In this document: in pieces, positions 1 through 61,305 of the stretch
How positions within the stretch are numbered: position 1 is the first letter of the stretch
How the letters are laid out: each line of letters begins with the position of its first letter
Notes under the pieces: model-generated
Told to the model about the DNA's origin: nothing
Databases searched by the model: none
The model's input: only the letters and a program-made list of their open reading frames with translations
Assembly: GCA_000004985.1 (NCBI GenBank)
Contig: GG738857.1
Origin: Naegleria gruberi
Taxonomy: Eukaryota
Direction: 5' to 3' (one strand)
DNA: 64,000 nucleotides
Translations under genes and position numbers: made by a program

Positions 1-891
1 AGCAGCTGAGAGTTTACAAAGCAATTGATCTTTAACTTCAATTGTTTTGTAAAAGTGTCCATACCATTTAAAGGCAATTTTGTAATTATTCAAAGAATAA
101 CTAGTCAAGAATTCGATAATCAAAGGAAGAGAAACAACACCAGTGAATTCTTCACCCTTCTTCTTATTGGCCTCGTTCATCTTCATCATGATTGAGTTGA
201 TCAAATGGAAAGCCATCAATGGAGCCAAGTAATATTTAAACAAAGTCCAGAATCCACCAAACCAAACCATGAAATAGGTAAAGAAAGATGCGAATAGAAT
301 CAAGACAATGGAATTGGTAATCTTATTGAAAGTATTTCCTTTTGTGTCAAAGTAAATATTGGTAACAATGCATTCCCAAATTGAGGTAAAGAACCAGAGA
401 GGACTCTTTGCTAATTTGAGCATGGCACCAAACATGAAGTGTGGTTGTGAACTTTCTTGTGGATAGGTCTTGAGATATTTCACATTTTCGAATGGATACA
501 ACAATGGCAACATGCAAACTAAACCAACCAATTGGTTAAGCCATTCAGGAAGTGTCTTGACATTGAAGAATTGATTAGTGGAACAACCATACGCAACAGA
601 AACCAATCGACAAGCACAAAATCCCAAGAAAATCCAACAAATTGGAAGTAAATACCAAGGAATGTTTACAACAAACAAAACACCAATGAGAATTAAGAGT
701 AAAGTCATGGACAATTGGATGGCAGCTTTGAAATTTGAAGGGGTAAAGCTACCTTCTACATGTTTCAGAGCTTCATTATGAAGAATGGAATCTTCACTAT
801 TGGCAGCAAACTCAGTTTTTACACTGGCAGCTGTCAGAGAGGTAACAGATGACATTTTTTTGGGATGATATTGAGGATAATAATCACTCAT
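1..891 (-). CDS. Multi-pass transmembrane protein of unknown family. The N-terminal exon starts at ATG 891-889 and the reading frame stays open to the window edge, so the C-terminus lies outside the window.
   Basis: By-eye reverse-complement translation from 891 down to 1 has no stop (MSDYYPQYHPKKMSSV...IGVLFVVNIPWYLLPICWIFLGFCA...FGGFWTLFKYYLAPLMAFHLINS...). It contains at least 5 hydrophobic helices. The ORF track omits it because it has no stop inside the window. Confidence 0.45.
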   Translation of the reverse strand, partial: MSDYYPQYHPKKMSSVTSLTAASVKTEFAANSEDSILHNEALKHVEGSFTPSNFKAAIQLSMTLLLILIGVLFVVNIPWYLLPICWIFLGFCACRLVSVAYGCSTNQFFNVKTLPEWLNQLVGLVCMLPLLYPFENVKYLKTYPQESSQPHFMFGAMLKLAKSPLWFFTSIWECIVTNIYFDTKGNTFNKITNSIVLILFASFFTYFMVWFGGFWTLFKYYLAPLMAFHLINSIMMKMNEANKKKGEEFTGVVSLPLIIEFLTSYSLNNYKIAFKWYGHFYKTIEVKDQLLCKLSAA

Positions 892-1197
892 TGATGTTAT
901 AACAGCAAGATATGCCTTTTCAATTGCAAATTGCTCTTATTCTTCAACATTGTGTTTGGAAGTTTGAAGATTGTTGAATGTTTTTTGTGCGATAAAGTGT
1001 CCACAAAATTTTGTAAAGTTTTGAGACATCAATTTTATTGTAATGCGTGTATTTACAGTCTGTAGAAATTATTTGGGTAAATATTGAATGAGTCATTGAG
1101 GGTTTATTACAATTATGAATTGGTTCTAAAAAGGACACATGTTAAATTTCATTAAAGCTAAAGTTTATTCTGATTCAGAATTATAAAACTGAAAACA

Positions 1198-2531
1198 ATG
1201 AGTATGGATATATTAGTTCGTGATCAAGGTTACTGGAAAGATCCTTCATCATTACTGAATAACAGTCGTTTCATTTCTGTTTACGAAATTCTCAATGAAA
1301 CAGTTTCGAATGACGATTTGAATAATTACAATAACGATAGACACATTCTAATTTCCNNNNNNNNNNNNNNNNNNNNNNNNNNNNNNNNNNNNNNNNNNNN
1401 NNNNNNCGTTATTTTATATGAACATGTTAAACTCAATTATTTCACTCTTCTGAAAAATGTAAAGATTTTACATTTAGAATGGAAAGACCCCAATGTGGAG
1501 GGTTTATAAATTTTGAAAATGTAAGCAATTTAACAAAACTAGAAGCAAAGAGTATTCCCAAATATATATATGCAAAATTCAACTCTTCTCTAAGGGAATT
1601 GCACCTGTCAATGTCATCTTTCAATCTAGACAATAATTTTGATAATTTGAAAAAATTGGAACTCATCAATGTTGGAAATTTATTAAGAGCCACCAGCACT
1701 ACATTTCCCTCCTTGGAATATGCCTATTGTACGAATTGTAATTTTTCCTTTAATGGAATTGAGTTTTTTTCCCAAAGCAAAAATTTGAAGAATTTGATTT
1801 TGAGGTGGTGTGATCTAGGAAAGGTGGAAACAGCCGAATTTCATTGTAGAGAATTGGAAGAATTGGATCTGACTACTGAGAATCCAATTAATCTTGATCT
1901 TTCGACATTGAGAGGACTAAACTTGAAGAAGCTCACAATTTATCCGAAATATATCAATAACCAAATAGATCTTTCCGTAATTGAGCAAATGGCAAGTTTG
2001 GAATATCTGAATTTAGGCGAATATTATGAAAATCTATCATTTTCCCAATTGACCAAATTGAATTATTTAGAATTTCGAAAAATTCGCATTTCAAAAAAGA
2101 ATCTAAAGGTAGAAAATTTGCTTTATGAAAATTTACTAAGAAATTGCGTCATTTACTTTAATAGTATAACCATTGAAGAGCATTGCATGCCATTTCCAAT
2201 TTTATTCGAAAGTGGAACTTTGGAAGGATCATTATTCGAATTAATTGCTTTGAAATTGAGAGAGCTCTGTATTGGTGTGAAAGGTGTGAAATTTGCCTTA
2301 ATGTCAGAGAAATTTATCTATGTTTCGTTTAATAGACAATCAAAGAATAAGCTATATTCGTATCCAAGTTTTATTCTATTCGAAACTGAAAGTCCGAACA
2401 GAATTTTGGAGCACAGAAGAAGTTTGGAAAAGAAACAAGAATTTTTTAATTTTACATCAAGTATCGAATATTTAATGCAACTGAAAAATTATTCTACTGT
2501 ACGAAATGGACGAAAGTGTGAAATTCAGTGA
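1198..2531 (+). CDS. LRR-like (F-box-associated type) protein, paralogue A. The N-terminal part is interrupted by the N-gap, and the two ORF pieces are probably joined by a roughly 42-nt intron near 1494-1535.
   Basis: ORFs 1198-1509 and 1479-2531. The 350-aa part aligns along its length with the ORF at 3346-4497 (FPSLEYAYCTNCNF vs FPSLEYVYCLDCDF), and both end in KCEIQ*. A GTTTAT...AACTAG intron would restore the frame. Confidence 0.5.
1357..1406. other. Assembly gap (N run, about 50 nt)
   Basis: Literal n characters in the sequence. Confidence 0.99.
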
Positions 2532-2597
2532 ACTAGTGAACATTCGAATATAATTTTCATTTAATATTTAAAATAATTAAAAACTAAACTAAAAAAA

Positions 2598-3302
2598 ATG
2601 TCCCTTCTCGATCTTCCCAGAGAAATTTTCGTTCTCATCCATTCATATACCGATTTTCAAACTATTCTAAACCTCCGAACCATTTGTAAATATTTATCCC
2701 TCACTTCCAAATATTATCAATCAGAAGTTGTGGATTTTACAAAAGATTATTCTGATTATTATTCATTGGGCGAAACTATATTCGATTTTAAAGGAAAGGA
2801 AAATTTGAATAGTTACATTGAGCCGACAGTTTTGTTTCTCGGTGAAAATATTGGAAAAATTGAATCGGTTCAGGTTCAGATGGACGAATGTGGAGAACCA
2901 AGTTTCGGATTTATTGAAAATATATTCGAAAGTTGTTTACAGTCAATTTCAGAGCTGAAATTTGATTTGTGGTTTCCTAGAAAAAGTAGCAAAGCACAAG
3001 TCAACACAGAACATGGATTAGAATCAAGTCAGTCAAGATTCCTGTCAAAATTCATGAGATTGAGAGCACTGTCATTGATTTTAACACATACAAGTCATGA
3101 ATATTTTAATTTGATTTTAGATGAAATAGAAAGAGGAAATTTCAAAGAATTGAAGAAATTTGAATTGTGCATTCGATGTACAACTCTTTCAGATTCGAAT
3201 ATTCAACAACTGGAGAGAATAATCAATCGAATGAAGACATTGACGCATTTGACATTGGAAATATATCACACTCATGAGCAACAAGAGTTGGTGAATCAAT
3301 AA
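2598..3302 (+). CDS. F-box domain protein
   Basis: The N-terminus LLDLPREIFVLIHSYTDFQTILNLRTICKYLS matches the F-box consensus (LP.EIL..IF..L....L...R.VCK.W). Intact 234-aa ORF. Confidence 0.55.
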   Translation: MSLLDLPREIFVLIHSYTDFQTILNLRTICKYLSLTSKYYQSEVVDFTKDYSDYYSLGETIFDFKGKENLNSYIEPTVLFLGENIGKIESVQVQMDECGEPSFGFIENIFESCLQSISELKFDLWFPRKSSKAQVNTEHGLESSQSRFLSKFMRLRALSLILTHTSHEYFNLILDEIERGNFKELKKFELCIRCTTLSDSNIQQLERIINRMKTLTHLTLEIYHTHEQQELVNQ

Positions 3303-3345
3303 AGAAATCAATGTCATATATTCCATTCCTTAAATTGAGTTTAAA

Positions 3346-4497
3346 TTGAATAGTAATCTTATGATGGATTGTTTGGAAAGTATTTCCCAAAATTCGAAGG
3401 ATTTATCTTTGATATTGGAAGATGGAAATCTCATGTCCGATCAATTGAAATTGGATCAATTGAGGAATTTGTCAAAGTTAGAGATTGATTACCTGCCTTC
3501 CTTTGTTACCGTGATGAATCCGCATCTAGTTGAGTTGCAAGTTGGAAGTCTTTTGAACAACAATTTCTTTAACAGAACATTGACCAATACGTTGCTTTTG
3601 AAAAGTACATTTTATAATTTGAAAAGATTGGAACTAACCAACGTTGGAAATATGTCAGAAGCTCCTACCTATGTATTTCCCTCTTTAGAATATGTCTATT
3701 GTTTGGATTGTGATTTTGGTAGTGGAATTGATTTCTTTTCGAATAGTACAAAATTGAAGAGTTTAATTTTGATATGGTGTAAATTTAAGATTCTATCAAA
3801 AACTAAATTTCAATGTCAAGGATTGGAAGAATTGAATATTTCCACAACTAGTCCACACAAATTCTTCGATGTTTCCACATTGAAAGGACTACAACTAAGG
3901 AAACTAAATATTTATCCTGTAGGTATCACTGGCGTTAGTCCAGTAACAACAGCTGATCTTTCAGCAATCGAAGAAATGACGAGTTTGGAACATTTAACAT
4001 TTGGAGAATATATTGAGAAATTTTCATTTGCCAAATTGACCAATTTGAAATACCTACAGTTTCGTAAAAGTTTTGCATTTGTAGGAATTCTATCATTAAG
4101 CTCATATGAACACTTACTTCATAATTGTGTCATTTACTTTGACGTTGCAGCATCTGATGTTCCTGTACCTGCTTTTTCAGAAAATGGAAGAGTTATTGTT
4201 AATTCATCCACTTGTCGATTAATTGCTTCCAAATTGAAAGAGCTCAATATTAGTGTGAATGGTGTGAAATTTGTAATAATGACACCAACGTACATTTACG
4301 TTACTTTCAATATGCAATCAAGGAAACAATCTCATTATTCCTATCCTAGTTTTATTCTATTCGAAAGCAAACAACCACACACAATTGTAGCCAGCGGAAG
4401 AAGTTTGGAAAAGAAGATGGAAGTACCAAAAATCACCATTGATTATTTAATGAATTTAAAGTTTGAAACTAATGAAAAAAAATGTGAAATTCAATAA
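3346..4497 (+). CDS. LRR-like protein, paralogue B of the gene at 1198-2531
   Basis: Intact 383-aa ORF, collinear with paralogue A (about 40-50% identity by eye over the C-terminal 300 aa). Confidence 0.6.
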   Translation: MNSNLMMDCLESISQNSKDLSLILEDGNLMSDQLKLDQLRNLSKLEIDYLPSFVTVMNPHLVELQVGSLLNNNFFNRTLTNTLLLKSTFYNLKRLELTNVGNMSEAPTYVFPSLEYVYCLDCDFGSGIDFFSNSTKLKSLILIWCKFKILSKTKFQCQGLEELNISTTSPHKFFDVSTLKGLQLRKLNIYPVGITGVSPVTTADLSAIEEMTSLEHLTFGEYIEKFSFAKLTNLKYLQFRKSFAFVGILSLSSYEHLLHNCVIYFDVAASDVPVPAFSENGRVIVNSSTCRLIASKLKELNISVNGVKFVIMTPTYIYVTFNMQSRKQSHYSYPSFILFESKQPHTIVASGRSLEKKMEVPKITIDYLMNLKFETNEKKCEIQ

Positions 4498-4510
4498 ATT
4501 ACAATGAATA

Positions 4511-6343
4511 TTAATTTTGGAATGGTTGTGGAACAAATCCTGGTTGTTGAGTTTGTACTGGTTGTAAAGTAGAAACTGGAATTGCTTGGAGATAACCACC
4601 TCTACCTCTTCCACCCCTAATAGATAAGCCACCTCTGCCACCCCTAATAGGTAATCCACCTCTTCCACCCCTAATAGGTAATCCACTACCTCTACCACTG
4701 TAAGAATAAGTGCTACAGGTTATTCCTCTTGGCATTGTTCCTTTCGGTTGTTTTGTCCTTTCTGTGTTGGGATCTTTAAATTTTCCATTCTTTCTAGATC
4801 GTGGTCGTGCTTCCTCCAACAAATCATCAACATGTTGTTCATTAAATTCGAATTGAGGAAACTCTGCCCTTACAGAATCAATAATCTTTGCTTTGAACAT
4901 TAGCAAGGCATTGGTGAAAGACTTTCTTGGACCATCACTAAGGAACATGTGAAAAATCTCCTCCTCTGTTAAGGTTGAGTTTGGAAATTTCCACATGTGA
5001 AATTCTTTCCACTTTTGAATCATGAATACTGTAAAATTGGTAAAGATCTCGAGATTTGGTTTGCTCAAATCCAATGCACGTCTCTTCATAATTCTTCCTA
5101 GAACATGTTGATACAAGCTCATAAAATCATTTGTTCTTGGTGTCATTAATTTTGGGTTATTTTTGGTCTGTTTCAGTAATCTGAATTCTCCATGAGCGTA
5201 ATTTCTTTCAAACAGATGGAAGAATAAATTCTTTTCGTCCATTTTGGTTGCCAATCGTATCATTTCTTCCAAAGGTTTGCAGTCAATTTGCAAAGATTTT
5301 TCACTATGCTTAGGGGAGGTCTCGTTGAGTAAATAAAACTTTGTCCATTTGAAAACTTGTTCTGTAAAATCAAGATGAAGACGTTTTTCCATTTGTTTTT
5401 CAAACATTAGTTTCCAGTTTCTAACTTTAGATTTGGAGAGTCTCAATCTGTTGGAATCAAATAATAGAGAGTTCAATTTCATATCTAAACTCTCGAAAAA
5501 TTCAAACTCTTCATCTCCAAATGAAACTACTGGAATTCCTACCTTCTTTACATTAAGCAATGTTTCGTATAATCTCTCAACATTTCTGTGTTGCTTAATG
5601 TAGGAATGCATTGAGGTAGTGTCACCAAATTCCTCCTTTGAAGATAACCAGTGAGGGAAATACTTATTAAGGTCTCTAATAGAATTCTCCAATCTAAAGA
5701 AAACTTTTGATGCAGTAAATTCTGACTTGGGGTTTCGAATTTGTTTCTTCATTTCGCTTTTTTTAGCATAATAGTAAAAATAAACTTGCTCCTTATATTG
5801 TAATTGATTCCATTTCGTTTTCAATTCCTTACTTGTAGATACCAAATCATTCTTCCTATTAACAAACTTTTCCTTTCCATTCGCGTAATTCGAAAACCTT
5901 TCAATTTCATTTCGAATAGCCAAGAAGGTCAACAATTCATAATAAGGACTCGATCTCACCTTCTCCACTTCCATCTCTTTCAAACTAGAAACACCCAACA
6001 TTTTACAACTAATCTCTGAACTGATCAACAATAATTTCTTCACCACTCGATCATTCAAATCCAAAAACAAACAAATGTGAAAATAAATTTCCCAAGGCAA
6101 ATGCGCAAAATCTTCATCATGATCTCCTCGTTTCATAGGAATACTTGTATTTCGTCTGCTCCTGTGTGTAGTTTCAACATTATTCGAATCTTGAAGACCA
6201 AAGAGAATGAAATCCTTCTCTTTCCATTGATTCTTTCTAATATTCTTTCTTTTTTGCTTGTTTTTAATGCCCTGTTCTGAAAGACCAACAAGCCTTCGTT
6301 TAACACCTTTGGGGAGTGAATGGGGAAGGAAGTTTTGAGACAT
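4511..6343 (-). CDS. F-box-like protein with C-terminal Gly/Arg-rich repeats (GGRGGLPIR x4, RGG-box-like)
   Basis: 610-aa ORF. F-box-like segment HLPWEIYFHICLFLDLNDRVVKKLLLISSEIS; C-terminal ...GRGSGLPIRGGRGGLPIRGGRGGLSIRGGRGRGG. Confidence 0.55.
   Translation of the reverse strand: MSQNFLPHSLPKGVKRRLVGLSEQGIKNKQKRKNIRKNQWKEKDFILFGLQDSNNVETTHRSRRNTSIPMKRGDHDEDFAHLPWEIYFHICLFLDLNDRVVKKLLLISSEISCKMLGVSSLKEMEVEKVRSSPYYELLTFLAIRNEIERFSNYANGKEKFVNRKNDLVSTSKELKTKWNQLQYKEQVYFYYYAKKSEMKKQIRNPKSEFTASKVFFRLENSIRDLNKYFPHWLSSKEEFGDTTSMHSYIKQHRNVERLYETLLNVKKVGIPVVSFGDEEFEFFESLDMKLNSLLFDSNRLRLSKSKVRNWKLMFEKQMEKRLHLDFTEQVFKWTKFYLLNETSPKHSEKSLQIDCKPLEEMIRLATKMDEKNLFFHLFERNYAHGEFRLLKQTKNNPKLMTPRTNDFMSLYQHVLGRIMKRRALDLSKPNLEIFTNFTVFMIQKWKEFHMWKFPNSTLTEEEIFHMFLSDGPRKSFTNALLMFKAKIIDSVRAEFPQFEFNEQHVDDLLEEARPRSRKNGKFKDPNTERTKQPKGTMPRGITCSTYSYSGRGSGLPIRGGRGGLPIRGGRGGLSIRGGRGRGGYLQAIPVSTLQPVQTQQPGFVPQPFQN
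4594..4700. repeat. Tandem 27-nt repeat, about 4 units, encoding the PIRGGRGGL repeats of the gene above
   Basis: Units such as ccacctctgccacccctaatagataag / ccacctcttccacccctaataggtaat are directly visible. Confidence 0.6.
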
Positions 6344-11313: not shown

Positions 11314-12236
11314 NNNNNNNNNNNNNNNNNNNNNNNNNNNNNNNNNNNNNNNNNNNNNNNNNNNNNNNNNNNNNNNNNNNNNNNNNNNNNNNNNNNNNNN
11401 NNNNNNNNNNNNNNNNNNNNNNNNNNNNNNNNNNNNNNNNNNNNNNNNNNNNNNNNNNNNNNNNNNNNNNNNNNNNNNNNNNNNNNNNNNNNNNNNNNNN
11501 NNNNNNNNNNNNNNNNNNNNNNNNNNNNNNNNNNNNNNNNNNNNNNNNNNNNNNNNNNNNNNNNNNNNNNNNNNNNNNNNNNNNNNNNNNNNNNNNNNNN
11601 NNNNNNNNNNNNNNNNNNNNNNNNNNNNNNNNNNNNNNNNNNNNNNNNNNNNNNNNNNNNNNNNNNNNNNNNNNNNNNNNNNNNNNNNNNNNNNNNNNNN
11701 NNNNNNNNNNNNNNNNNNNNNNNNNNNNNNNNNNNNNNNNNNNNNNNNNNNNNNNNNNNNNNNNNNNNNNNNNNNNNNNNNNNNNNNNNNNNNNNNNNNN
11801 NNNNNNNNNNNNNNNNNNNNNNNNNNNNNNNNNNNNNNNNNNNNNNNNNNNNNNNNNNNNNNNNNNNNNNNNNNNNNNNNNNNNNNNNNNNNNNNNNNNN
11901 NNNNNNNNNNNNNNNNNNNNNNNNNNNNNNNNNNNNNNNNNNNNNNNNNNNNNNNNNNNNNNNNNNNNNNNNNNNNNNNNNNNNNNNNNNNNNNNNNNNN
12001 NNNNNNNNNNNNNNNNNNNNNNNNNNNNNNNNNNNNNNNNNNNNNNNNNNNNNNNNNNNNNNNNNNNNNNNNNNNNNNNNNNNNNNNNNNNNNNNNNNNN
12101 NNNNNNNNNNNNNNNNNNNNNNNNNNNNNNNNNNNNNNNNNNNNNNNNNNNNNNNNNNNNNNNNNNNNNNNNNNNNNNNNNNNNNNNNNNNNNNNNNNNN
12201 NNNNNNNNNNNNNNNNNNNNNNNNNNNNNNNNNNNN
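11314..12236. other. Assembly gap (923 N)
   Basis: n run. The ORF-track entries translated as X across this span are artefacts. Confidence 0.99.
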
Positions 12237-18828: not shown

Positions 18829-19993
18829 NNNNNNNNNNNNNNNNNNNNNNNNNNNNNNNNNNNNNNNNNNNNNNNNNNNNNNNNNNNNNNNNNNNNNNNN
18901 NNNNNNNNNNNNNNNNNNNNNNNNNNNNNNNNNNNNNNNNNNNNNNNNNNNNNNNNNNNNNNNNNNNNNNNNNNNNNNNNNNNNNNNNNNNNNNNNNNNN
19001 NNNNNNNNNNNNNNNNNNNNNNNNNNNNNNNNNNNNNNNNNNNNNNNNNNNNNNNNNNNNNNNNNNNNNNNNNNNNNNNNNNNNNNNNNNNNNNNNNNNN
19101 NNNNNNNNNNNNNNNNNNNNNNNNNNNNNNNNNNNNNNNNNNNNNNNNNNNNNNNNNNNNNNNNNNNNNNNNNNNNNNNNNNNNNNNNNNNNNNNNNNNN
19201 NNNNNNNNNNNNNNNNNNNNNNNNNNNNNNNNNNNNNNNNNNNNNNNNNNNNNNNNNNNNNNNNNNNNNNNNNNNNNNNNNNNNNNNNNNNNNNNNNNNN
19301 NNNNNNNNNNNNNNNNNNNNNNNNNNNNNNNNNNNNNNNNNNNNNNNNNNNNNNNNNNNNNNNNNNNNNNNNNNNNNNNNNNNNNNNNNNNNNNNNNNNN
19401 NNNNNNNNNNNNNNNNNNNNNNNNNNNNNNNNNNNNNNNNNNNNNNNNNNNNNNNNNNNNNNNNNNNNNNNNNNNNNNNNNNNNNNNNNNNNNNNNNNNN
19501 NNNNNNNNNNNNNNNNNNNNNNNNNNNNNNNNNNNNNNNNNNNNNNNNNNNNNNNNNNNNNNNNNNNNNNNNNNNNNNNNNNNNNNNNNNNNNNNNNNNN
19601 NNNNNNNNNNNNNNNNNNNNNNNNNNNNNNNNNNNNNNNNNNNNNNNNNNNNNNNNNNNNNNNNNNNNNNNNNNNNNNNNNNNNNNNNNNNNNNNNNNNN
19701 NNNNNNNNNNNNNNNNNNNNNNNNNNNNNNNNNNNNNNNNNNNNNNNNNNNNNNNNNNNNNNNNNNNNNNNNNNNNNNNNNNNNNNNNNNNNNNNNNNNN
19801 NNNNNNNNNNNNNNNNNNNNNNNNNNNNNNNNNNNNNNNNNNNNNNNNNNNNNNNNNNNNNNNNNNNNNNNNNNNNNNNNNNNNNNNNNNNNNNNNNNNN
19901 NNNNNNNNNNNNNNNNNNNNNNNNNNNNNNNNNNNNNNNNNNNNNNNNNNNNNNNNNNNNNNNNNNNNNNNNNNNNNNNNNNNNNNNNNNNNN
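18829..19993. other. Assembly gap (1165 N)
   Basis: n run. Confidence 0.99.
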
Positions 19994-20008: not shown

Positions 20009-20989
20009 TTACCACATTTCAGCCAGTCTGAAATTGCTTGCAAAGTAAGTTGTAATAAGACCTCCCCAAACATGTGGACCATAATAAGTAGATTGAATGT
20101 ACCACCTATCTGGATTCTTATAAGCAGCAGGAATATTATTTGCAGTGTCAGCAACAACTTGACGAAGTCTTGGCTTGACATCCTTAGAAAAGACAAGAGT
20201 TTGTCCCACAGTTGGATAGGTCAATTCATAGGAAGCAATCACATCATCATAACCCCATGTATTTGTAGTATTAGTGGCAGCTCCATTGAAAAACCAATTC
20301 TTATTTGGAACACGTGATGGACTAACTGAGGCATAATGCAAATTGAGTTGATAGAAAAGTGTCAAACTTGGAGCATCATAATTCTTCAACACAAATGAGG
20401 TAATGAAAGTAGCTTGAGTAATACATGAAGAAGCAACTTGTTGAATGTAATAGGGTCTTACATTTATGGTATGTAATAATTGCTTTCCATTATTGGCAAG
20501 TGGACCTTCAATTGCTGGAACGAAAGGGGCAGTATCATACGTATTGGAAGTGGTTGGTTCAGCAAATAAATTGGCTTCCACACCACAACCTAACAAATTA
20601 CCATTCAGGGCTAGCTCAATAGTATCATTTCCTGGAGTGAAAACAACACGAGAGCTTGGATTAGCTACAGAATATTGATTATTGAAAGCATTGAGTTCGT
20701 AAGCATTTTCCCATTGAGCAACATGCCAATTTGAAACACCAGGGGTTCCAGGAGTTTTCAAATTTCTATTGTAAACTTTGGCGCCCATCTTGTAACCTGT
20801 GGCTTTAGGTACAAGGTCATTGTAAGTGACAGCCAAAACCAAGACAACTTGATAGAGGAACACTGTTGTAAAGATTAAGAGAAATCTTGATGAATATTTG
20901 GATAACATTTTTTTTTTGAATGGAAATTTAGAGATCTTTAAAGCTGATGTTAAATAGCTTTTCGAAACTTGCCGAATCGTTCGTGTCAT
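20009..20989 (-). CDS. Secreted protein of unknown family, about 300 aa. The probable start is the internal Met of MLSKYSSRFLLIFTTVFLYQVVLVLA.
   Basis: Intact 326-aa ORF with an N-terminal signal peptide, and Gly/Asn/Trp-rich with no TM helix. No family recognised by eye. Confidence 0.5.
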   Translation of the reverse strand: MTRTIRQVSKSYLTSALKISKFPFKKKMLSKYSSRFLLIFTTVFLYQVVLVLAVTYNDLVPKATGYKMGAKVYNRNLKTPGTPGVSNWHVAQWENAYELNAFNNQYSVANPSSRVVFTPGNDTIELALNGNLLGCGVEANLFAEPTTSNTYDTAPFVPAIEGPLANNGKQLLHTINVRPYYIQQVASSCITQATFITSFVLKNYDAPSLTLFYQLNLHYASVSPSRVPNKNWFFNGAATNTTNTWGYDDVIASYELTYPTVGQTLVFSKDVKPRLRQVVADTANNIPAAYKNPDRWYIQSTYYGPHVWGGLITTYFASNFRLAEMW

Positions 20990-21217
20990 TTGTTTACAAT
21001 GTGGAAATGTGATATTAATGAACGAGCTAGAAGTTCGATAGAGAACTCGTTATTTCTTTCTTATAAGGAAATGGAATATTAACATCTTCTAATAAAATAC
21101 CCTCCAATTTCAACTACAATTTGTTTATTAGAAACCTTTCTAACTTATTTTACAACCATATAAATTTCATTGTTATTCATCAATGAAAACAGTTGAAATT
21201 ATTCATTGCCAGTAAAT

Positions 21218-21458
21218 TAGATTGTTCTATTGGAAATAGAACAGAAGAGATTTGTAAAATAAGGAATTATTTGATTGGTTAAATGATTAATTTCTATTGG
21301 TTGAACATGTTGTAAATATTGTGATGGAGCAATTCAATTTAGTATAAATTGAACGTTGACAACACTCAATAACACTCAAGAGCTCCAAAGAAAATGTCTC
21401 AACAACAACAATCACAACAAAATCAACAAACTCTACAATCCTACCAACCAACCAACAG
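21218..21458 (+). repeat. Terminal repeat A1 of the element. It contains the ORF1 start codon and the first codons of ORF1.
   Basis: Direct repeat of 25142-25374. A2 has a 9-bp deletion (taaaataag) relative to A1. Confidence 0.8.
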
Positions 21459-22122
21459 TTTTGATGCTTTCTCTACTAGAGATATGAATATTCCACAACA
21501 AAATCAACAACCTACTCAACAAACAACCCCACAAACAACTCAACAACCTAATCTCCAACCAAATCTTCAACCTAATCTCCAACCTCCTCAAGATGAAGAG
21601 GATGAAGAAGATGTTATCTTCAATGATAAAGAAGAAATTGATAATTTAACAGACCAACTCATGGAATTGTTTTACAAAGCAAAGCATAACAATATCAAGT
21701 TTGGTTCATTGCAAGATTTAGTTCTAATGACTTCATTTGAAAAACCAGTCATCAGTAAAGAGAAGGGTAAAGAATTACAACAGGAACTCAATTCCATTAC
21801 TGCTGGTCATTCAGTTCTGTTTGGTAATAATAGATCCAACGAGTTGACCAATGAGAAGTTGAGAAATGATTATAACTTTGTACTCATGGTTGGTAAAATG
21901 AGCGAAAGAATGTTCAAAGTTAGTTCTGCCCAAGAAATGTCTAACATTATGAACCTATTAATTAATGTTGCTACCTTTAGAAAGACAATTTATGATGTAG
22001 CATTATCCACCAATTCTGTAGATAAGATTGCAAATGTCGAAAATACGATGTCAGTTTCTGCTAATCCCTACACTAATGAGGTTATGAAGGAATTAAAAAA
22101 AAGAAAAGAAGAAAGAAACTGA
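21394..22122 (+). CDS. Element ORF1, a gag-like protein (Q/N/P-rich N-terminus, 242 aa)
   Basis: Position and composition are typical of DIRS-like ORF1. No zinc knuckle seen. Confidence 0.5.
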   Translation: MSQQQQSQQNQQTLQSYQPTNSFDAFSTRDMNIPQQNQQPTQQTTPQTTQQPNLQPNLQPNLQPPQDEEDEEDVIFNDKEEIDNLTDQLMELFYKAKHNNIKFGSLQDLVLMTSFEKPVISKEKGKELQQELNSITAGHSVLFGNNRSNELTNEKLRNDYNFVLMVGKMSERMFKVSSAQEMSNIMNLLINVATFRKTIYDVALSTNSVDKIANVENTMSVSANPYTNEVMKELKKRKEERN

Positions 22123-22220
22123 AACTAACATTTTCCAAATGGTAAAGAATAGAAATAATAATTACAGACACGACTATAACAAAAGGAAAAGAGACAGTAG
22201 TAGTTACAACCAAAAACAAT

Positions 22221-24176
22221 ATGATTACCAAAACAGAAGAGGTGGTAAACGGTATGACTATAATAACTCCAACAAAAATGGAGGAAAAAATGGAACCTCA
22301 AATTCCAAGTGACCCCATAATAGGGGGAAGGTTATCCAAATTTTCAAAGGAGTGGGAAAAGATAACCTCCAACAAAACAATATTAGATTGGGTAAAGAAT
22401 GGTCTAACAATCAACCACAACCCCCAACTAATCCATCCACTTCCACAGAGAGAACCAACGAAAGAGAAAGAGAAAATTTGGTTCCAAGAACACATAGAAC
22501 AACTGAAACAACAAGAAATGATTATAGAAGTTTCCAACAAAGAAGAAGTATTAATTCACCCAATCTACCTCATACCAAAGCGAAATTCAACAGAGCCATT
22601 CAGACCAATTTTAGATATGAGAGGGGCAAACTCTGGAATAGAAACGCTTCACTTCAAACAAGAAACGTTGAAGACAATAATGAAATTGTTAAAAAGAGGT
22701 CAATGGTGTGGAAAAATAGATCTGAAATCTGGTTACAATCACCTAAAAATAGAACGCAATTCACAGCATCTTCTAGCCTTCCAATTCAACAACAAAAGGT
22801 ACAAATACACAACTCTTCCATTTGGGCTAAATATCGCACCAAGAACATTTCACAAGATTATGAAAACAGCAATCACTCAATTAAGAAAAGAAAGTATAGT
22901 CATATTCTTCTATCTGGACGATATTTTAATAATAGGAAATTCCTTTCAAGAATGTCAGAAAAACATAGAAAGAACGAGACAATTATTAGAAAGTCTTGGC
23001 TTTGTAATTCAGATGAAAAAGTCAGTACTGTCTCCTGTTCAAGAAATAGATTTTTTAGGATCAACAATCAACACAAAACTAGGAACACTTTGTCTTCAGA
23101 AAGAAAAAATCAACACAGCCCAAAAGATCCTCAAGAAACTAGAATTGAAACATTTAAGTCAACGAAGAATCAAGATCAGAAAGTTCCAATCAATAATAGG
23201 GAAATTGATGTTCCTAAGTACAATAGACAAGAACTTAAGACCTTTTCTAATTCGACCTCAACATCACATTTCAAATATGGTAACAAAGAAAGGATGGTTA
23301 GGAGAAATGCATATCTTACGAAGCGATTTTCAAGATTTAAAGACAATCTCTGCAATCCTAAAACAATCAAAAGGAACAACGTTCGAACTAGAAACAACAT
23401 TACAAATCCTAACAACGGACTCATCGACGACAGGTTTTGGTGGAGTATCCAAAAACCTAATAATGCATGGCAGATGGAGCCATCAAATTCAAGAATACCA
23501 TATCAATTTAAAAGAATTACTAGCAGTCGAACAAATGATATTGGCAATTCAAAAGAACAAGTCTTTTTCAAAAGGAACACAATTTCACGTACGAACAGAC
23601 AATCAAGTAATCATGACTTACCTCAAGAATGGAGGAGGAAAAGTAGATTACTTAGCAACAGTAGCAAGAAGAATATGGAAAATATGTATCAACAACAATT
23701 GGCTAATCAGAAAAGTAACGTACCTTCCTTCCAAAGAAAATTTCTTTGCAGACAAGCTCTCAAGATTGGGAGAATGGGAAATAATCAATTCAACTTTCAA
23801 TCAACTCCAGCAAAAATTTGGTCCTTTCAGCATAGACCAATTTGCAAGCCAAACAAATTGCAAAGTAAGAAGGTTCGGTCAAAGAAACTTCTATCAGGAT
23901 GCTTTTTTGAACAATTGGGAACAGGAGAACAATTATTTGGTTCCTCCCTTAGGCTTAATCCTCCCAACAGTAACACACTTACTAAAAAGCAAAGCAAAGG
24001 CTCTTCTAATCGTTCCAAAATGGGAAAGCGCAGTTTGGTGGCCAGTTCTAATGAAGATAACACAAGAAACATTATTCTTAACGAAAGAGGACATGATCTT
24101 CAATCAAGACATGGAACTATCCAGAAACTCAGAATGGAACTTTGTAGCACTAAAGGTTCAAGCAACCACCTACTAA
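22221..24176 (+). CDS. Element ORF2, reverse transcriptase plus RNase H
   Basis: RT motifs ...LPFGLNIAPRTFHKIM... and YLDDILIIG. An RNase H-like C-terminal part follows. 651 aa. Confidence 0.75.
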   Translation: MITKTEEVVNGMTIITPTKMEEKMEPQIPSDPIIGGRLSKFSKEWEKITSNKTILDWVKNGLTINHNPQLIHPLPQREPTKEKEKIWFQEHIEQLKQQEMIIEVSNKEEVLIHPIYLIPKRNSTEPFRPILDMRGANSGIETLHFKQETLKTIMKLLKRGQWCGKIDLKSGYNHLKIERNSQHLLAFQFNNKRYKYTTLPFGLNIAPRTFHKIMKTAITQLRKESIVIFFYLDDILIIGNSFQECQKNIERTRQLLESLGFVIQMKKSVLSPVQEIDFLGSTINTKLGTLCLQKEKINTAQKILKKLELKHLSQRRIKIRKFQSIIGKLMFLSTIDKNLRPFLIRPQHHISNMVTKKGWLGEMHILRSDFQDLKTISAILKQSKGTTFELETTLQILTTDSSTTGFGGVSKNLIMHGRWSHQIQEYHINLKELLAVEQMILAIQKNKSFSKGTQFHVRTDNQVIMTYLKNGGGKVDYLATVARRIWKICINNNWLIRKVTYLPSKENFFADKLSRLGEWEIINSTFNQLQQKFGPFSIDQFASQTNCKVRRFGQRNFYQDAFLNNWEQENNYLVPPLGLILPTVTHLLKSKAKALLIVPKWESAVWWPVLMKITQETLFLTKEDMIFNQDMELSRNSEWNFVALKVQATTY

Positions 24177-25099
24177 CATTATTCAAAGCAAGAGATGTTA
24201 TCCTCAAATACAAGTTAGCTGATTCGACAATCAGAACATACAGAAACCACGTTAACAAATTTAAAGATTTTTGTTTCTGGTATAACATTGAAAGATGTTG
24301 GAATCTGAATTCCATTTCCCTTTATCTCACAAACATGTTATTGAAAGGCTCAGGTGGGTCAGTGAAACAAGCATGTGCCGCCCTTCAACATGAAACCAAA
24401 TGTTTGGGCATTGTGGTTGATTGGAAAAATTCAATAATTTCCGATATCAGATCATCTACAACAAAGATATGGTCTCTCTTTGATAGAGAAAAACTAATTA
24501 GAGAACCATTTGATTTAGCTAACCTAAAATATTGGTTAGAAAACCCACCAAACATTGACCCTTGGTCATTCAAACTCTATGCTGCAGTAATTGCTGTTGG
24601 TGTTCGTGCATTAATGAGACCTGGAGAGTTAGCGGATTTGTCATTCGGTGATGTGTCTTACAATAAGGATGGTCATTTAGTTTTCACTTTAGGACAAACA
24701 AAAACAGATCAACAAGGAAAAGGTGAAAAAATTACTATTGAACCTTCCTATTCCGAAATATGTCCTGTCAAAATATTCCAAACCTATTATGATCACTGTA
24801 AGCAATTTAAATCTCCTAAGTGCCCATTATTTAGCAACCCTAGATCCAACACATTCTTTAGAACTGCAGATATTTCTAATATAGTGAAATATGTATCACA
24901 ACATAATCCAAACAACACTTCAATTGTCTCTGGACATTCACTTAGAAAAAGAGGTGCTACACATCTTGCAAAATCTGGTTACACATCTTCTCAACTAAAA
25001 GTTGCTGGACGATGGAGATCTGATTGTTACTTAACATACATATCAGAAGAAATCTTACCTTCCTTAGGTACTTCAAATACTTTATTCTCGGGACAATAA
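24134..25099 (+). CDS. Element ORF3, tyrosine recombinase (phage-integrase-like). It overlaps the end of ORF2 in another frame.
   Basis: Catalytic-residue pattern R (ALMRPGELADL), H-x-x-R (GHSLRKRGATHLA) and the nucleophile Tyr region (WRSDCYLTYI). The upstream part of track ORF 22352-25099 is an overlapping-frame artefact. Confidence 0.6.
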   Translation: MELCSTKGSSNHLLTLFKARDVILKYKLADSTIRTYRNHVNKFKDFCFWYNIERCWNLNSISLYLTNMLLKGSGGSVKQACAALQHETKCLGIVVDWKNSIISDIRSSTTKIWSLFDREKLIREPFDLANLKYWLENPPNIDPWSFKLYAAVIAVGVRALMRPGELADLSFGDVSYNKDGHLVFTLGQTKTDQQGKGEKITIEPSYSEICPVKIFQTYYDHCKQFKSPKCPLFSNPRSNTFFRTADISNIVKYVSQHNPNNTSIVSGHSLRKRGATHLAKSGYTSSQLKVAGRWRSDCYLTYISEEILPSLGTSNTLFSGQ

Positions 25100-25141
25100 C
25101 CCAATTAGTATTTAAAATAATTTATTATTTGTAGAAATCTT
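25098..25141 (+). repeat. Element repeat B1 (44 bp), identical to B2
   Basis: aacccaattagtatttaaaataatttattatttgtagaaatctt occurs at both places. Confidence 0.8.
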
Positions 25142-25374
25142 TAGATTGTTCTATTGGAAATAGAACAGAAGAGATTTGGGAATTATTTGATTGGTTAAAT
25201 GATTAATTTCTATTGGTTGAACATGTTGTAAATATTGTGATGGAGCAATTCAATTTAGTATAAATTGAACGTTGACAACACTCAATAACACTCAAGAGCT
25301 CCAAAGAAAATGTCTCAACAACAACAATCACAACAAAATCAACAAACTCTACAATCCTACCAACCAACCAACAG
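25142..25374 (+). repeat. Element repeat A2
   Basis: Direct copy of A1, including the ORF1 start ATGTCTCAACAACAACAATCACAACAAAATCAACAA. Confidence 0.8.
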
Positions 25375-25832
25375 CCCACCCATTTAACCAATTCCTTAAC
25401 GGAATTAGTTAAATTCCCACCCTTTATACATATTATTGTAAGCAGTAACAAATAAGCACATTTGTTCACTTACCTCAGTAAGCTAGAGTTAGCAGACTTC
25501 TCTACAACTGAGTACACATCATTCTTAATTATAAATAGAATGAGTGAGTTCTCTGGAACAATTGGCCATAACGGTTGAATTTCAACTTCTAGGTCAAATT
25601 TATTAGAAAACTGCATTGTAATTTTAGATTCTCCAAAAAGTCTGTACAAGAAGGGACAAGAGAAAAGATCTTTAGCACTAAAGAGACAGACCTTTGAAAT
25701 GTGTATCTTCAAAGTAATACTTGTGCTTTAGTTTATTAAATCTCGATTTCTCGGGACCAAAGCTAAAATCTATCTCAAATTCCACTTTACTTGTAAAGCA
25801 AAATTTTGTGAGACATCTTATAGGAGTAATAA

Positions 25833-25876
25833 AACCCAATTAGTATTTAAAATAATTTATTATTTGTAGAAATCTT
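25833..25876 (+). repeat. Element repeat B2, the 3' terminus of the element
   Basis: Identical to B1. Unique flanking sequence resumes at 25877. Confidence 0.8.
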
Positions 25877-25881
25877 AATAA

Positions 25882-26895
25882 ATGTTTAAAAGAAATTACA
25901 AAAAAATGCAAGAAATCAACGAGCACCCATTCGACGATTTGATCATTAGTAAAATATTAGAATATCTATCCTCATCCACATTAGAAATCATCAATTTAGG
26001 ACAAGTTTGCAAATCATTCCGAAGAATTTGTCTTCATCCTTCCACAAAATTATCATTTTCCAATTATTTATCCAAAAATCGTGATGAAAATTGTGATGAA
26101 TACAATGATCATGATACAGTGAAGGAATATTTACCATTTAATTGGGAAGCATGTTTCGATTTTTTACAATATTTCACAACGATTGATTTGGGATGTCAAT
26201 TTGGGATGCCAGATGCAATGGATTATATTGTTAATGTGGCACTTGCATCGACGAAAATTGAAGAATTATATTTGAAAAATTGTGAAATTTATGCATTGAC
26301 TAATGTAAATTGTAAAATATCGAGATTGGAATGTTGTCAAGTTGTCGTTCCATTACAATTTGAAAGTATTATTCAATATTTTCCTTATTTGAAACATTTA
26401 AAAGTTGAAGATTGTCATGTCCAGTTGGAATGTTCACCAAAATTGCAAATGATATGCGAATGCTTGGAAAGTTTAGTTGCAATTGATTCGTTGAAAGATT
26501 TATTTACAATTAATATTCAATTTGGTCAATTAACAGAATTGACATTTATTTCAACGTTTGAACAGGAAATGTATTTTGAGAAAATTGATTATTGTATGAA
26601 TTATGAAAATTTTCCAAAATTGAAAAAGTTAACTTTGAAAGTTCCATCGAAATGCATTCAATTAGATTTACCAATTTTGGAAGAATTAGTATTGGAAGCA
26701 GAAATAGATTATTATGATTTTCGATCAATGCACACAATGCTTAAATTAGAAAATTTAAAAAAATTGGAAACTACTTCTTTCGATGTATGCAAAGCCAATT
26801 TAATTGCTCCAAATTTGGAAACTTTGATCATTAGAGACGAATTTAACATTGTAAAATCGTGGAATATTAATCCGATTCCCCAAATCGATAAATAA
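25882..26895 (+). CDS. F-box-like / LRR-like protein
   Basis: The N-terminus HPFDDLIISKILEYLSSSTLEIINLGQVCKSFRRICLHP is F-box-like. The C-terminus has repetitive Leu-rich segments. 337 aa. Confidence 0.55.
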   Translation: MFKRNYKKMQEINEHPFDDLIISKILEYLSSSTLEIINLGQVCKSFRRICLHPSTKLSFSNYLSKNRDENCDEYNDHDTVKEYLPFNWEACFDFLQYFTTIDLGCQFGMPDAMDYIVNVALASTKIEELYLKNCEIYALTNVNCKISRLECCQVVVPLQFESIIQYFPYLKHLKVEDCHVQLECSPKLQMICECLESLVAIDSLKDLFTINIQFGQLTELTFISTFEQEMYFEKIDYCMNYENFPKLKKLTLKVPSKCIQLDLPILEELVLEAEIDYYDFRSMHTMLKLENLKKLETTSFDVCKANLIAPNLETLIIRDEFNIVKSWNINPIPQIDK

Positions 26896-27181: not shown

Positions 27182-30100
27182 ATGCAACAATTTGTAAAGC
27201 GAGCAAAGAGTAGGGAGAATGGAAGGGATGGCCAACTGTAAGTGTTTTGGTGTGTTTAGAATAATAATTATTGATGTTTCGAATAGTGGTCAAAGAGGTG
27301 AAAATGGTCATGTAAGTTAAAACTAAAGATATTCATCATACATTATTGATGTGCATAGACTGGAAGACACGGTGCTCACGGATATGGTCATGGAGGGAAT
27401 GGCTATCACGGAGAAAGGTAAATTAAACTAATATTTAACTAAAATATCTTCAAAAAGAGGAGGCAATGGATTTAACGCAACCAATGCTTGGCATGGTGAG
27501 AATGGTGAAGATGCAAAACACGGCAAAGATATTCACATTCTATTGGAAGGTGATGTCATGTCAACTGTTGTTGTGAGTGGTGACTTTAGTTATGGAGGAG
27601 GTGTTTGTGAGATGGTTTGTGTATCAGAGGGAGGAAAGTAAGTTTAGCTTTAAATGCACATGTATTGAAATTAATATTCGAAAGTGGTGGAAATGGTGGA
27701 AAGTAAGTTTGGTTTTGTGAATAATGTTATTAATTTACAAAAAAAATAGTGGTGGAAAGGGAGGCGAGTAAGTAGAAGAATTCCTATAGTTCTGTATTCT
27801 AATTTCGAATAGTGGTGGAGCTGGTGGTCAGTAAGTTTTACTTTAATTTCTATTCGAAATGAACATTTGAAAAAGAGGTGGAATAGGAGGTGCTGGTTCA
27901 CAAGGTAAAAGAGGTGCACCAGGTCAAAATGGAGAAAGGTAAGCAATTATTCTTAACATTAGATTCTAATATTAATATTCGAAATGTAGAGGTGGAAATG
28001 GTGGCAAGTAAGTTTTACATTTTGCAATTATACGAATCAATTCAGTGGTGGAGAGTAAGTTTTTCAAAATTTCATTAAAATTCACTTTTCAAGTGGTGGA
28101 GAGTAAGTAAGAAAGTCTTTTTTAAACTTTATTCGAAACTAATTAGTGGTGGCCATGGAGGAAAGTAAGTTGTTCCTTAATTTTGTAAACAATTTTTACA
28201 CAAACAAGTGGAGGAAATGGTGGCAGGTAAGTTGAAAAAAGGAAATTTCATATTCAAATAACCTTTCGAATAGAGGAGGAAATGGTGGAAATGGAGGATC
28301 AGTCTATATTGACACCACCAATCCATATTTATTGAATTATATTGAAGGAACGAGTATTTCAGGAAGAGGAGGATCTGGTGGTAGAGGTGGAAATGGAGGA
28401 ATTGGTGGCAGTGGTGGAAGGTAAGTGAACTTTCGAATATGTTGAAATTGCAACCTGTTTAAAAGTCCTGGAGAGGGTGGACATGCTGGAAAGGGAGGTG
28501 ATCCAGGTGATCCAATCACCATTACTAGAACTCTTCCAGATAATAGAGTTCACACAGAAATTAAGAGATTTCATCATGGACCAGATGGATCAAAAGGTTA
28601 CAGAGGAAAACAAGGAAAATCTGGAACTAATGGTCAATCAGGACAATCAGGACAACAAGGAACTGATGGAGTTTGTGGAGCTGTCATGTACAGAGTTCTT
28701 GATCCATTCACTAAAATGGTCATTGAACAATCAGCTAAAAAGTACAAACTCAAAGTTATTGATTTTTCATTTGTTCCATTAATTGATGATGGAATTTTGG
28801 AACCAGGAGAACAAGCCAAGATTACAAATTTTGTAATTAAGAATGAAGGTGGATTGACTGCTCCTGCAGGTGCTGAGGTTTCATTGACTGGTGATGGATT
28901 TACTGTTTGTAATATTCCAAAATTCATTCTTCCACAACCAATCGTGCCAGGTCAAGTAATTACTATCACTGATCAGGAATTTCTTGTCCGAGTTGAAGAA
29001 AGAATGAATAAGGAACCAAGAAATTTTGGATCTTTTGCTGCCAATGTCAGATTGAATACTCCAACTAAATATTATGATAAGAAACATGCTAAGGGATGTG
29101 AGAAGAATTTCACAGCAAGACTTCCATTGGCAATTGAATATGCCAACTGTACAAAGGCAATGGATAAACTTCAAAGAGGAATAATGAAGGTTGGTGTGAA
29201 GAATTTGGCAACATTACCTTATGGATCTATGAGTCAATCGATGGTTTGTCAAGTTGGATTGAAAATTGATTTTGATCCAAGAATGGTTGTTTTCCCAGAG
29301 TTGATTCCTAATGCAACAATGGTTGAACCAACCAGTCTCTATATTGAAATTCCAAATTTAATGGCTCTTTCATGTTTGGAACATAATATTGAGTTTGCAT
29401 TCACTGATAGAGTTAATTATTTCGACACCTTGTACTATTCCATTTCTCTTATTTATAAGGGAGAACAAATTGAAAAGCATCTGATGGATGTGAGAATGGC
29501 TCCTTCCTATATGCCTTCACCTCAAGGAGAAAATACATACGATGTCATTTTCTTTACTAATTCTCATATTAATAATGTGGAATTTATGAATTATATGAGA
29601 ATATTTGATGGATTAGCATTGAGAGTTAATTTCTGGGATATTCAAATTAATCAAGGATTGAGTTTCTTCAATAATGATGGAAGAACCAGACATCCAATTA
29701 CTTGGACCAATGATAATCAAGGAAAGGTAATTGTTTATCCAATGGCAAATGATATGGAATATCAACTCATGTTCTCCCATGATATTGTCAATATTGTAAA
29801 GCCAAATCCAGAAAACAAATTATTAGAAGGTGGAATAATTCTAGTTGGTAATGTAACCAATCAACAATTTATTGCCCATTTGAGAACTGCTTCAACAGAA
29901 GTCAAAATTCCAGACGATTCCATCTCTGACAGCTATGTCATTTCAAAGCCAGTTCGTGATCATTTAACTCAAAAATCCAATGAATACATTAAGAAGGTTG
30001 CAGTTACCAAACCAGCTCAGAATTTAGTACTTGGCAGAACTGTTTTCAATCCAAAGAAAATTGGTTCATTCAAAACGCTTTTAGGAGAAGCTTATTATTT

Positions 30101-59872: not shown

Positions 59873-61305
59873 ATGTCTGAAGATTGGGTTTGTGTTTTGT
59901 GATGCGATTTTATTAATGGGGGTGTGATGACTATCACAAATAATAGGCCGATAGGACATATGTGTTAGAAGCTGTTAAACAACGTGGAAATGCACTTAAA
60001 TATGCCGATGAAGCATTTAAAAAAGATAGAGAAATTGTATTGGAGGCTGTTAAAAAAAACGGATTAATAATTCAATATGCTGATTCATCATTGAAAAGAG
60101 ATAGAGAAATTGTATTGGAAGCTGTTAAACAGCGTGGATATGCAATTCAATATGCTGATTCATTGTTAAAGAAAGATAGAGAAATTGTATTGGAATGTGT
60201 TAAACAAGATGGATTGGCACTTGAATATGTTGATTTATCATTACAAAAAGATAGAGAAATTGTGTTGGCAGCTGTTAAACAAAATGGATTGGCACTTCGA
60301 TATGCTGATTCATCATTGAAAAAAGATAGAGAAATTGCATTGGAATCTGTTAAACAACGTGGATATGCAATTCAATATGCTGATTCGTTGTTAAAGAAAG
60401 ATAGAGAAATTGTATTGGAAGCAGTTAAACAAGATGGATTGGCACTGCAATATGCTTATTTTCAAAATGACAGAGAAATTGTATTGGAAGCTGTTAAGCA
60501 AAATGGATCAGCAGTTGAATACGCTGATTCATCATTGAAAAAAGATAGAGAATTTATATTGGAATCTGTTAAACAACATGGATTGACTCTTAAATATGCT
60601 GATTCATTATTGAAGAAAGATAGAGAAGTTGTTTCGGAAGCTGTTAAACAAGATATATTGGCACTTAAATATGTTGATTCATCATTTAAAAGAGATAGAG
60701 AATTTATATTGGAAGCAGTTAAACAACATTCATTGGCACTTGAATATGCTGATTCATCTTTACAAAGAGATATCGTTTTTACTTATTCACTTTTTAAATT
60801 GAACAAAGAAAATGCAAGAAAGTTCTCACCCTCTATAACCAAAACCATTGAAGAATCCATTAATCTTCAGAGAAAGCTGTCAAGCAATATAATTGAACAA
60901 TACTCCAAAATATTTATGGATGAAAAGGATTTATATTATGCTATTGAATTAACAAGTCTCTTTAATCCAACACCAAAAGGTACAATATTCAATTTCAATT
61001 CTATCTATACACCAATATTTATTGAAAAATTGATTATTTTTCAAATATTGAAACAAATGAACCATTCAGAATTGTCTAATGATATTATTGCTCTTATTGA
61101 TTTACAAAGTACCAAAGCTAACTATTATTTATATTGTTTCAGATTGGACAAATTTCTTGAAGATAATCCCTGTCAATCAACAAGAATGAAAGATTTGAAG
61201 AATATTGTGGAACAAGTTGCAACAAACTTTGAAACGTCATTTTATACAAAACAGGAAATTAATGAAATTATGATTTTTGCCAACAAGTGGTTTGAAAATG
61301 AGTAA
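59873..61305 (+). CDS. DUF4116-repeat + kinase gene, copy 2. Mini-exon 1 (59873-59887, MSEDW), an intron at 59888-59946, and a repeat exon from 59947. The reading frame ends at an in-frame TAA at 61303-61305, where copy 1 has CAA.
   Basis: Donor GTTTGT and acceptor AATAATAG, phase 0. About 10 DUF4116-type repeats. The downstream sequence stays collinear with copy 1 beyond the TAA. Confidence 0.55.

Follow-up and report, generated by a model that had tools for sequence, protein, structure and literature searches.

Retrotransposons with a gene for a tyrosine recombinase (YR) are rare, their replication is poorly understood, and beyond the animals, fungi and amoebozoans most of the reported copies are too degraded to be analyzed. 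Here we describe one such element from the heterolobosean Naegleria gruberi (Discoba), located in a 64-kb window of contig GG738857.1 (the whole stretch of DNA analyzed, to which all positions refer). The closest described systems are the DIRS1-like and the PAT elements. Both have an MT domain, and it is the termini that part them: inverted repeats together with an internal complementary region in the DIRS1-like elements, and, for PAT, split direct repeats (PMC4157794; PMC3266345; PMC6681497). An MT domain and a long overlap of the pol and YR genes, with the catalytic YR situated in the non-overlapping 3′ end, have been described as DIRS1-like traits, the overlap being found in about half of the described elements (PMC3266345). 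PAT comprises those elements of the DIRS group that have split direct repeats, with the position of the internal repeats differing among its forms; in nematode Pat1 and in kangaroo, the whole YR gene lies between the internal repeats and the terminal repeat B2 (PMC4157794). The monophyly of PAT is disputed (PMC6681497; PMC4157794). Ngaro and VIPER elements are without an MT domain and usually without overlaps between their open reading frames (ORFs) (PMC3266345).

For N. gruberi itself, Piednoel et al. (2011) reported DIRS1-like sequences, which were assigned to the DIRS1-like elements over PAT by TBLASTX E-values (PMC3266345). The same survey found the N. gruberi sequences too damaged for phylogeny or repeat analysis, expressed caution on the Excavata, and reported a very low copy number of 7 sequences in 6 families (PMC3266345). 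We found no paper characterizing an intact DIRS or PAT element of N. gruberi, or the termini of one. The region at positions 21218-25876 of the window (4659 bp) probably constitutes one full-length, structurally complete YR retrotransposon of the DIRS order, which combines the gene layout of DIRS1/PAT with split direct ends of the PAT type. It is a well-preserved and previously uncharacterized representative of a known class, and not a new kind of element.

Split Direct Repeats at the Ends of the Element

The element begins with TAGATTG and ends with ...GAAATCTT, in a gene-dense window of about 33% G+C. Comparison by blastn and by a repeat search recovers two pairs of direct repeats, arranged as A1...B1A2...B2. 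The A repeats are 96.7% identical over 241/233 nt (E 4e-113), the sole difference being an 8-nt indel (TAAAATAA) carried by A1, and 196 contiguous nucleotides are shared exactly between 21263-21458 and 25179-25374. The B repeats are identical at 44/44 nt (E 1.6e-16), so that, the indel aside, 277/277 repeat positions agree. B1 adjoins A2 directly, and because position 21217 matches 25141 too, one nucleotide (T) is common to both repeats at this boundary. The ATG of ORF1 (21394) falls within A1 and is duplicated in A2 at 25310, where the frame runs for 25 codons before a stop. These observations bear out the preliminary description of this DNA, which had proposed an A1-ORFs-B1-A2-B2 arrangement with near-identical A repeats that include the ORF1 start codon, identical B repeats and a B1 abutting A2. 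We refine it in one respect, which its coordinates imply and its formula does not: A2 and B2 are not adjacent. The 458 nt that separate them are dissimilar to all other parts of the element and of the window, whether compared as DNA or as protein, and have no match in Pfam.

All of these repeats are direct. The best inverted self-match of the element scores 26.3 bits, whereas 30 shuffles average 28.5 bits and reach 36.2 at most; as it falls below the shuffle mean, we conclude that the element has neither inverted repeats nor an internal complementary region. Judged from its sequence, the B1/A2 boundary would correspond to what is expected of the joined ends of the element, that is, a circle junction. 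Two further features lie close to these boundaries. A perfect palindrome with a 9-bp stem (TGTTCTATT-GGA-AATAGAACA) is present at 21223-21243 and again at 25147-25167, 5 nt inside the A repeat, and a TAGAA/TTCTA motif flanks the B/A junction (25131-25152) in inverted orientation, TAGAAATCT-TT-AGATTGTTCTA. Both are possible candidates for recombinase binding sites, in DNA that is AT-rich.

Reverse Transcriptase and Tyrosine Recombinase

The second ORF encodes the pol protein. Its reverse transcriptase (RT) domain, with the motif YLDDILIIG, matches RVT_1 in Pfam (4.7e-25), and a PF05869 match (Dam/MT; N6-adenine methyltransferases of the Dam family) covers residues 519-627 (2.1e-8; 34.5 bits vs a cut-off of 28.1). 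The RNase H match (RT_RNaseH, 2e-3) is under the Pfam cut-off, and the D-E-D-D residues of this domain are invariant in our alignment. In total 495 relatives of pol were found, many of them with RVT_1 plus Dam, and the closest are approximately 32-35% identical. An alignment of 25 sequences (24 relatives) has 35 invariant columns, all of which ORF2 retains (35/35), including YLDD and the RNase H residues D400, E432, D460 and D511. The MT motif reads VPP and not D/NPP. The MT domain of these elements has been described as catalytically inactive (PMC4738411), and the VPP motif is consistent with an MT domain that may likewise be inactive.

The recombinase domain occupies the C-terminal ~300 residues of ORF3, matches Phage_integrase (5.1e-8; 33.3 bits vs a cut-off of 27.1, Pfam) and aligns to Cre over the catalytic region. 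Across the YR and nine of its relatives, no variation is seen at R163, K191, H269-x-x-R272, W295 or Y303, and the catalytic codons are located at 24617 (R), 24701 (K), 24935 (H), 24944 (R), 25013 (W) and 25037 (Y). Searched exhaustively with HMMER, 1.84 billion representatives yielded 2822 relatives of the YR, 158 of them at E <= 1e-10, with best identities of 32-35%. No rve domain was detected in any ORF by the Pfam scan. ORF2 had been described earlier as RT plus RNase H and ORF3 as a tyrosine recombinase in place of a DDE integrase, in an element assigned to the DIRS order. All of this holds: similarity of ORF3 to tyrosine recombinases is evident with the catalytic set intact, the RT and the acidic residues of RNase H are in place with the Dam/MT domain as an addition, and a DDE integrase is absent.

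An acquisition of the YR from bacteria was considered, as a word-indexed search had given only a bacterial integrase and, with a YR profile, again mainly bacterial integrases. This idea was dropped because the exhaustive HMMER search exposed the word-index result as an artefact of sensitivity. For the YR the word index gave only bacterial integrases although thousands of relatives exist, those of the long-ORF3 type among them, and an absence of hits in it should not be equated with isolation. For the YR, AlphaFold run on the single sequence gave an unusable model (pLDDT 33).

The first ORF has a Q/P/T-rich N-terminus and no cysteine, and hence no zinc knuckle; the label "Gag-like" is given to it by position alone. 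At its end lies an A8 run (A AAA AAA, 22095-22103), and the +1 frame is open from 22097, with an ATG at 22139. This frame (22096-22312) encodes a very basic peptide of 57 aa, rich in K/R/N/Y and with an RGG, for which no Pfam match was found, and its stop (TGA 22310) immediately precedes the opening of ORF3 in the same frame. It is purely speculative that a +1 slip at the A-run would add a tail resembling nucleic-acid-binding sequences to Gag.

An Open Frame Across the Whole of Pol

An overlap of the YR gene with ORF2 had been noted before. Our analysis confirms it and shows that it covers all of ORF2 and not only its end: the ORF3 frame (-1 relative to pol) is open from 22313 to 25099, while the remaining frame contains 87 stops over the same stretch. 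Under shuffling of synonymous codons, with the ORF2 protein kept, 30.5 +/- 3.9 stops are expected in the -1 frame, and one is observed; 0/20000 shuffles had <=1 stop, and none fell below 17. ORF2 codons ending in T and followed by AA, AG or GA occur once where 36.5 are expected, and T makes up 18% of the third positions in ORF2 compared to 36-41% in ORF1 and host genes. The same test showed no stop avoidance in three host genes or in ORF1. We therefore conclude that the frame has been kept open by selection. As a route to the YR, we also weighed programmed -1 frameshifting close to where pol ends, and set it aside because it leaves the open frame of ~600 codons unexplained.

The long overlap of pol and YR is a hallmark of the family and not a novelty. 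In the related element L003, the -1 frame has 0 stops where 13.8 are expected, with a 1172-aa ORF that ends in a YR, and a -1 overlap of pol and YR is also seen in the related element L002. Proteins of 870-985 aa account for 15 of the 150 best YR relatives. Ten of these long proteins were scanned, and in 10/10 an integrase domain at the C-terminus is the only one present, with RT absent; in five of the long proteins, the N-terminal part has a weak but collinear similarity to the part of ORF3 that is overprinted, strongest for P0147 (1.4e-11). For the overprinted part itself no Pfam match was found.

The ORF3 frame opens after the TGA at 22310, and its first candidate start is the GTG at 22352, with G at -3 and G at +4. 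Among the 15 long relatives, 5 start with "MG" where the N. gruberi sequence reads "VG"; the alignment of the N-termini is too poor to show that the GTG is homologous to the ATG of the relatives. The start codon of ORF3 may thus be mutated or deliberately weak. The intactness claimed in the preliminary description consequently holds for the three open ORFs and has to be qualified for ORF3, which has a GTG instead of an ATG at its 5′ end. The features of the element are collected in Table 1.

Table 1. Features of the N. gruberi element, in window coordinates.
Feature	Coordinates	Strand	Basis or remarks
A1, 5′ split direct repeat, 241 nt	21218..21458	+	holds the presumed 5′ untranslated region and the first 65 nt of ORF1
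ORF1, 242 aa	21394..22122	+	Gag-like by position only
ORF2 (pol), 651 aa	22221..24176	+	Pfam and 25-sequence alignment
RT domain	~22572-23069	+	RVT_1
RNase H domain	~23406-23753	+	RT_RNaseH
Dam/MT-like domain	~23775-24101	+	PF05869
ORF3, 915 codons from GTG	22352..25099	+	frame open from 22313; first ~608 codons overprinted on pol, -1 frame
YR homology region of ORF3	24131..25096	+	Phage_integrase, Cre alignment, HMMER relatives, invariant columns
B1, internal copy of the 3′-terminal repeat, 44 nt	25098..25141	+	starts within the ORF3 stop codon, adjoins A2
A2, internal copy of the 5′-terminal repeat, 233 nt	25142..25374	+	repeat search
Spacer between A2 and B2, unique, 458 nt	25375..25832	+	appears non-coding
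B2, 3′-terminal repeat, 44 nt	25833..25876	+	ends 5 nt short of the ATG of the host F-box/LRR ORF

Placement Among the YR Retrotransposons

The MT domain together with the ORF overlap places the element in the DIRS1/PAT lineage and not with Ngaro. We classify it by structure as PAT-type, because the MT domain and the overlap set it apart from Ngaro and the absence of inverted repeats sets it apart from a strict DIRS1-like element. It had been introduced as "Ngaro/PAT-type"; the PAT-type termini stand, while the reference to Ngaro is contradicted by the Dam/MT domain and the overlap of pol and YR. With the Toc3 form of PAT (Chlamydomonas) and the echinoderm Pat1 form it has in common an MT-like domain in pol, the A1...B1A2...B2 order, a forward YR downstream of pol and internal repeats downstream of the YR. 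The zinc finger used as a criterion for the Pat1-like subgroup is missing from the cysteine-free ORF1, so that the element is not Pat1-like, and as in Toc3 the first ORF is without a zinc finger. The lack of a Gag zinc finger and the forward YR therefore point to the Toc3 form rather than to Pat1 or kangaroo. Unlike Toc3 and Pat1, the element resides in a heterolobosean (Discoba) host and has a unique spacer of 458 nt between A2 and B2; such a spacer is within the known range, since in nematode Pat1 and in kangaroo the internal repeats are separated from B2 by the whole YR gene.

With DIRS-1 of Dictyostelium discoideum and the DIRS1-like elements, the N. gruberi element shares the three ORFs, a pol of RT, RNase H and MT, an internal copy of the joined ends, a long YR ORF that overlaps pol with its catalytic domain in the non-overlapping 3′ end, and an apparent lack, in this one copy, of a target-site duplication, and its size of 4.66 kb is within their range of 4.0-6.3 kb. 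It differs in that the DIRS1-like terminal repeats and internal complementary region are inverted, whereas every repeat of its own, terminal or internal, is direct. Ngaro elements (zebrafish, fungi, Cafeteria) have the same gene order of gag, RT/RNase H and YR, but no MT domain, usually no ORF overlap and a contiguous B1A2B2, and the N. gruberi element differs in all three. The VIPER/TATE elements of kinetoplastids are the other YR retroelements known from Discoba, the same supergroup, and VIPER copies show A1...B1A2B2; VIPER is without an MT domain, and no sequence affinity of the N. gruberi element to it was seen among the best hits.

Of the relatives, L002 (JGI metagenome 3300035317, 1-6204) was assembled as 1.39 unit lengths of 4465 bp, with 1-1739 identical to 4466-6204 at 100%. 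Given these perfectly repeated ends, the contig is a circle or a tandem array, and its pol and YR ORF overlap across the unit boundary.

Alternative Explanations

Several observations weigh against a complete PAT-type retrotransposon, and they are considered here together with the explanations that they would favor. All structural conclusions come from one copy of the element, and the A/B boundaries seen in this single copy are putative ends of the family. For ORF1, homology to any Gag could not be detected: Pfam gave no match, and the first ORFs of four related elements show no detectable resemblance to it. That the element is transcribed, reverse-transcribed, circularized and integrated we infer from published models. 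The RT relatives with readable termini (L001, L004 and L006) all have inverted repeats and an internal complementary region, and this, together with a coding architecture identical to that of the DIRS1-like elements and the assignment of N. gruberi sequences by TBLASTX E-values in 2011 (PMC3266345), would fit a strict DIRS1-like element with inverted terminal repeats. However, the tools that found no inverted repeats in the N. gruberi element readily show them in L001, L004 and L006, and with an inverted self-match below the shuffle mean and significant repeats that are direct only, we regard this classification as highly improbable. An Ngaro element is hardly credible at all: Ngaro elements are without an MT domain and usually without overlaps (PMC3266345), and here the Dam/MT match is over its cut-off and the overlap is extreme.

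The 458 nt of unrelated sequence that part A2 from B2, unlike in the textbook B1A2B2, raise the question of whether the region is a single unit. A1-ORFs-B1 (21218-25141, 3924 bp) could be an autonomous unit and A2-spacer-B2 (735 bp) a second one, a non-autonomous or rearranged partner placed head-to-tail by recombinase-mediated integration beside a copy already present or within it. Two units joined head-to-tail would give the very picture seen at B1/A2, the separation of A2 and B2 by unrelated sequence would follow, DIRS-1 is reported to prefer existing copies as insertion sites (PMC7192593), and the related L002 was assembled as a circle or tandem array of identical units. On the other hand, the spacer shows no DNA or protein similarity to the internal region and so is no deletion derivative of it, in nematode PAT and kangaroo the internal and terminal repeats are likewise kept apart by a long stretch, the YR gene (PMC4157794), and the replication model needs an internal copy of the joined ends. 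We therefore consider such a composite unlikely and favor one continuous PAT-type element. A more serious possibility, though still the lesser one, is that this element, though structurally complete and young, is an immobile relic in single copy, the start codon of its recombinase ORF having been lost. ORF3 has no 5′ ATG, the first in-frame ATG (22703) lying 117 codons past the GTG; several long relatives have "MG" at this place, and the GTG/ATG change would be synonymous in pol (GAG vs GAA). The few N. gruberi sequences of the 2011 survey were called degraded (PMC3266345), and no second copy occurs within the 64 kb. Against this stand the three open ORFs, the stop avoidance that is intact over ~600 overlapped codons, and the identity of the repeats outside the one 8-nt indel; moreover, the context of the GTG is favorable and could belong to a deliberately weak start, and the N-termini align too poorly for homology of the start positions to be proved.

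The repeat identity, the indel aside, argues for a young insertion or for homogenization, and in this single copy it may suggest recent activity. Further copies were sought and not found, by blastn and repeat search in the 64-kb window, and in metagenome contigs by a single-protein scan and an exact scan for the terminus of the A repeat. The three ORFs were not found in the protein collections searched, and exact look-ups of the ORFs flanking the element on both sides gave no match.

Insertion Site and Proposed Replication

The flanks (...CAGTAAAT / AATAAATG...) show no duplication adjoining both ends, with an overlap of 1 nt (T), as read from one copy. The predicted empty site would read ...CCAGTAAATAATAAATG... 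(also ...CCAGTAAATAATAAATGTTT...). Retrotransposition of DIRS-1 requires the internal junction (PMC7192593), and a replication model for elements with split repeats is cited in PMC6681497. Following such models, RNA running from within A1 to B2 would be translated and reverse-transcribed, and the internal B1A2, carrying the sequence of the joined ends, would provide a template or splint by which the termini are restored and the ends bridged into a circle. The recombinase would then insert this circle by conservative site-specific recombination, without a target-site duplication. Here, insertion would have taken place in a divergent intergenic region of ~233 bp, with no more than a single T in common at the crossover. 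The flanks fit this conservative model, there being no duplication at both ends and a single shared T at the predicted crossover.

On the downstream side, the ATG of a host F-box/LRR ORF (25882-26895) follows 5 nt after B2; the flank on the opposite side is 20009-21217. Given this distance of 5 nt, element sequence now makes up the upstream region of the host gene, and A2, which copies the 5′ region of the element and lies ~0.5 kb upstream of the gene, could drive or disturb the F-box/LRR gene.

Implications

The element extends the well-documented range of DIRS1/PAT to Discoba and provides a data point on whether direct and inverted termini originated more than once. We tentatively raise the possibility that it is the first intact, possibly mobile YR retrotransposon with split direct repeats (PAT-type) from Heterolobosea/Discoba, with a pol and a layout that fall among the inverted-repeat DIRS1-like elements. 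If this were true, the element would mark an independent change from one type of terminus to the other, inverted or direct, and would be a natural case in which to test how an internal junction templates the joining of ends. As the complete copy with clean termini sits in a culturable, transformable, free-living protist, it is usable for tests of the circle junction and of the route by which the overprinted recombinase extension of ~600 codons is translated. For the annotation of the genome, ~4.7 kb are to be labeled as a transposable element.

Other Features of the Window

Four long ORFs of the window agree exactly with annotated N. gruberi proteins, all from one 573-kb scaffold. Assembly gaps (runs of N) are present at 1357-1406, 11314-12236 and 18829-19993, with none inside the element; the last of these stops ~1.2 kb upstream of the element and breaks ORFs on both strands. 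A cluster of F-box/LRR-like ORFs at 1479-4497 (1479-2531, 2598-3302 and 3346-4497), two of which have long similar C-terminal halves, appears to be of the same family type as the gene beside the element. Paralogous genes at 46940-49699 and 59962-62574 encode repeats of the type VKQNG...KKDREIVLEAV followed by a protein-kinase-like C-terminus; they share long near-identical stretches ~13 kb apart, and the second is split into two ORFs, 59962-61305 and 61558-62574. Finally, the region 27288-28420 is G-skewed (GC skew up to 0.40), with GGT/GGA-rich repeats of 9 and 27 nt and repeats of ~65 nt that contain GTAAGT, and probably corresponds to a glycine-rich gene whose introns are short.

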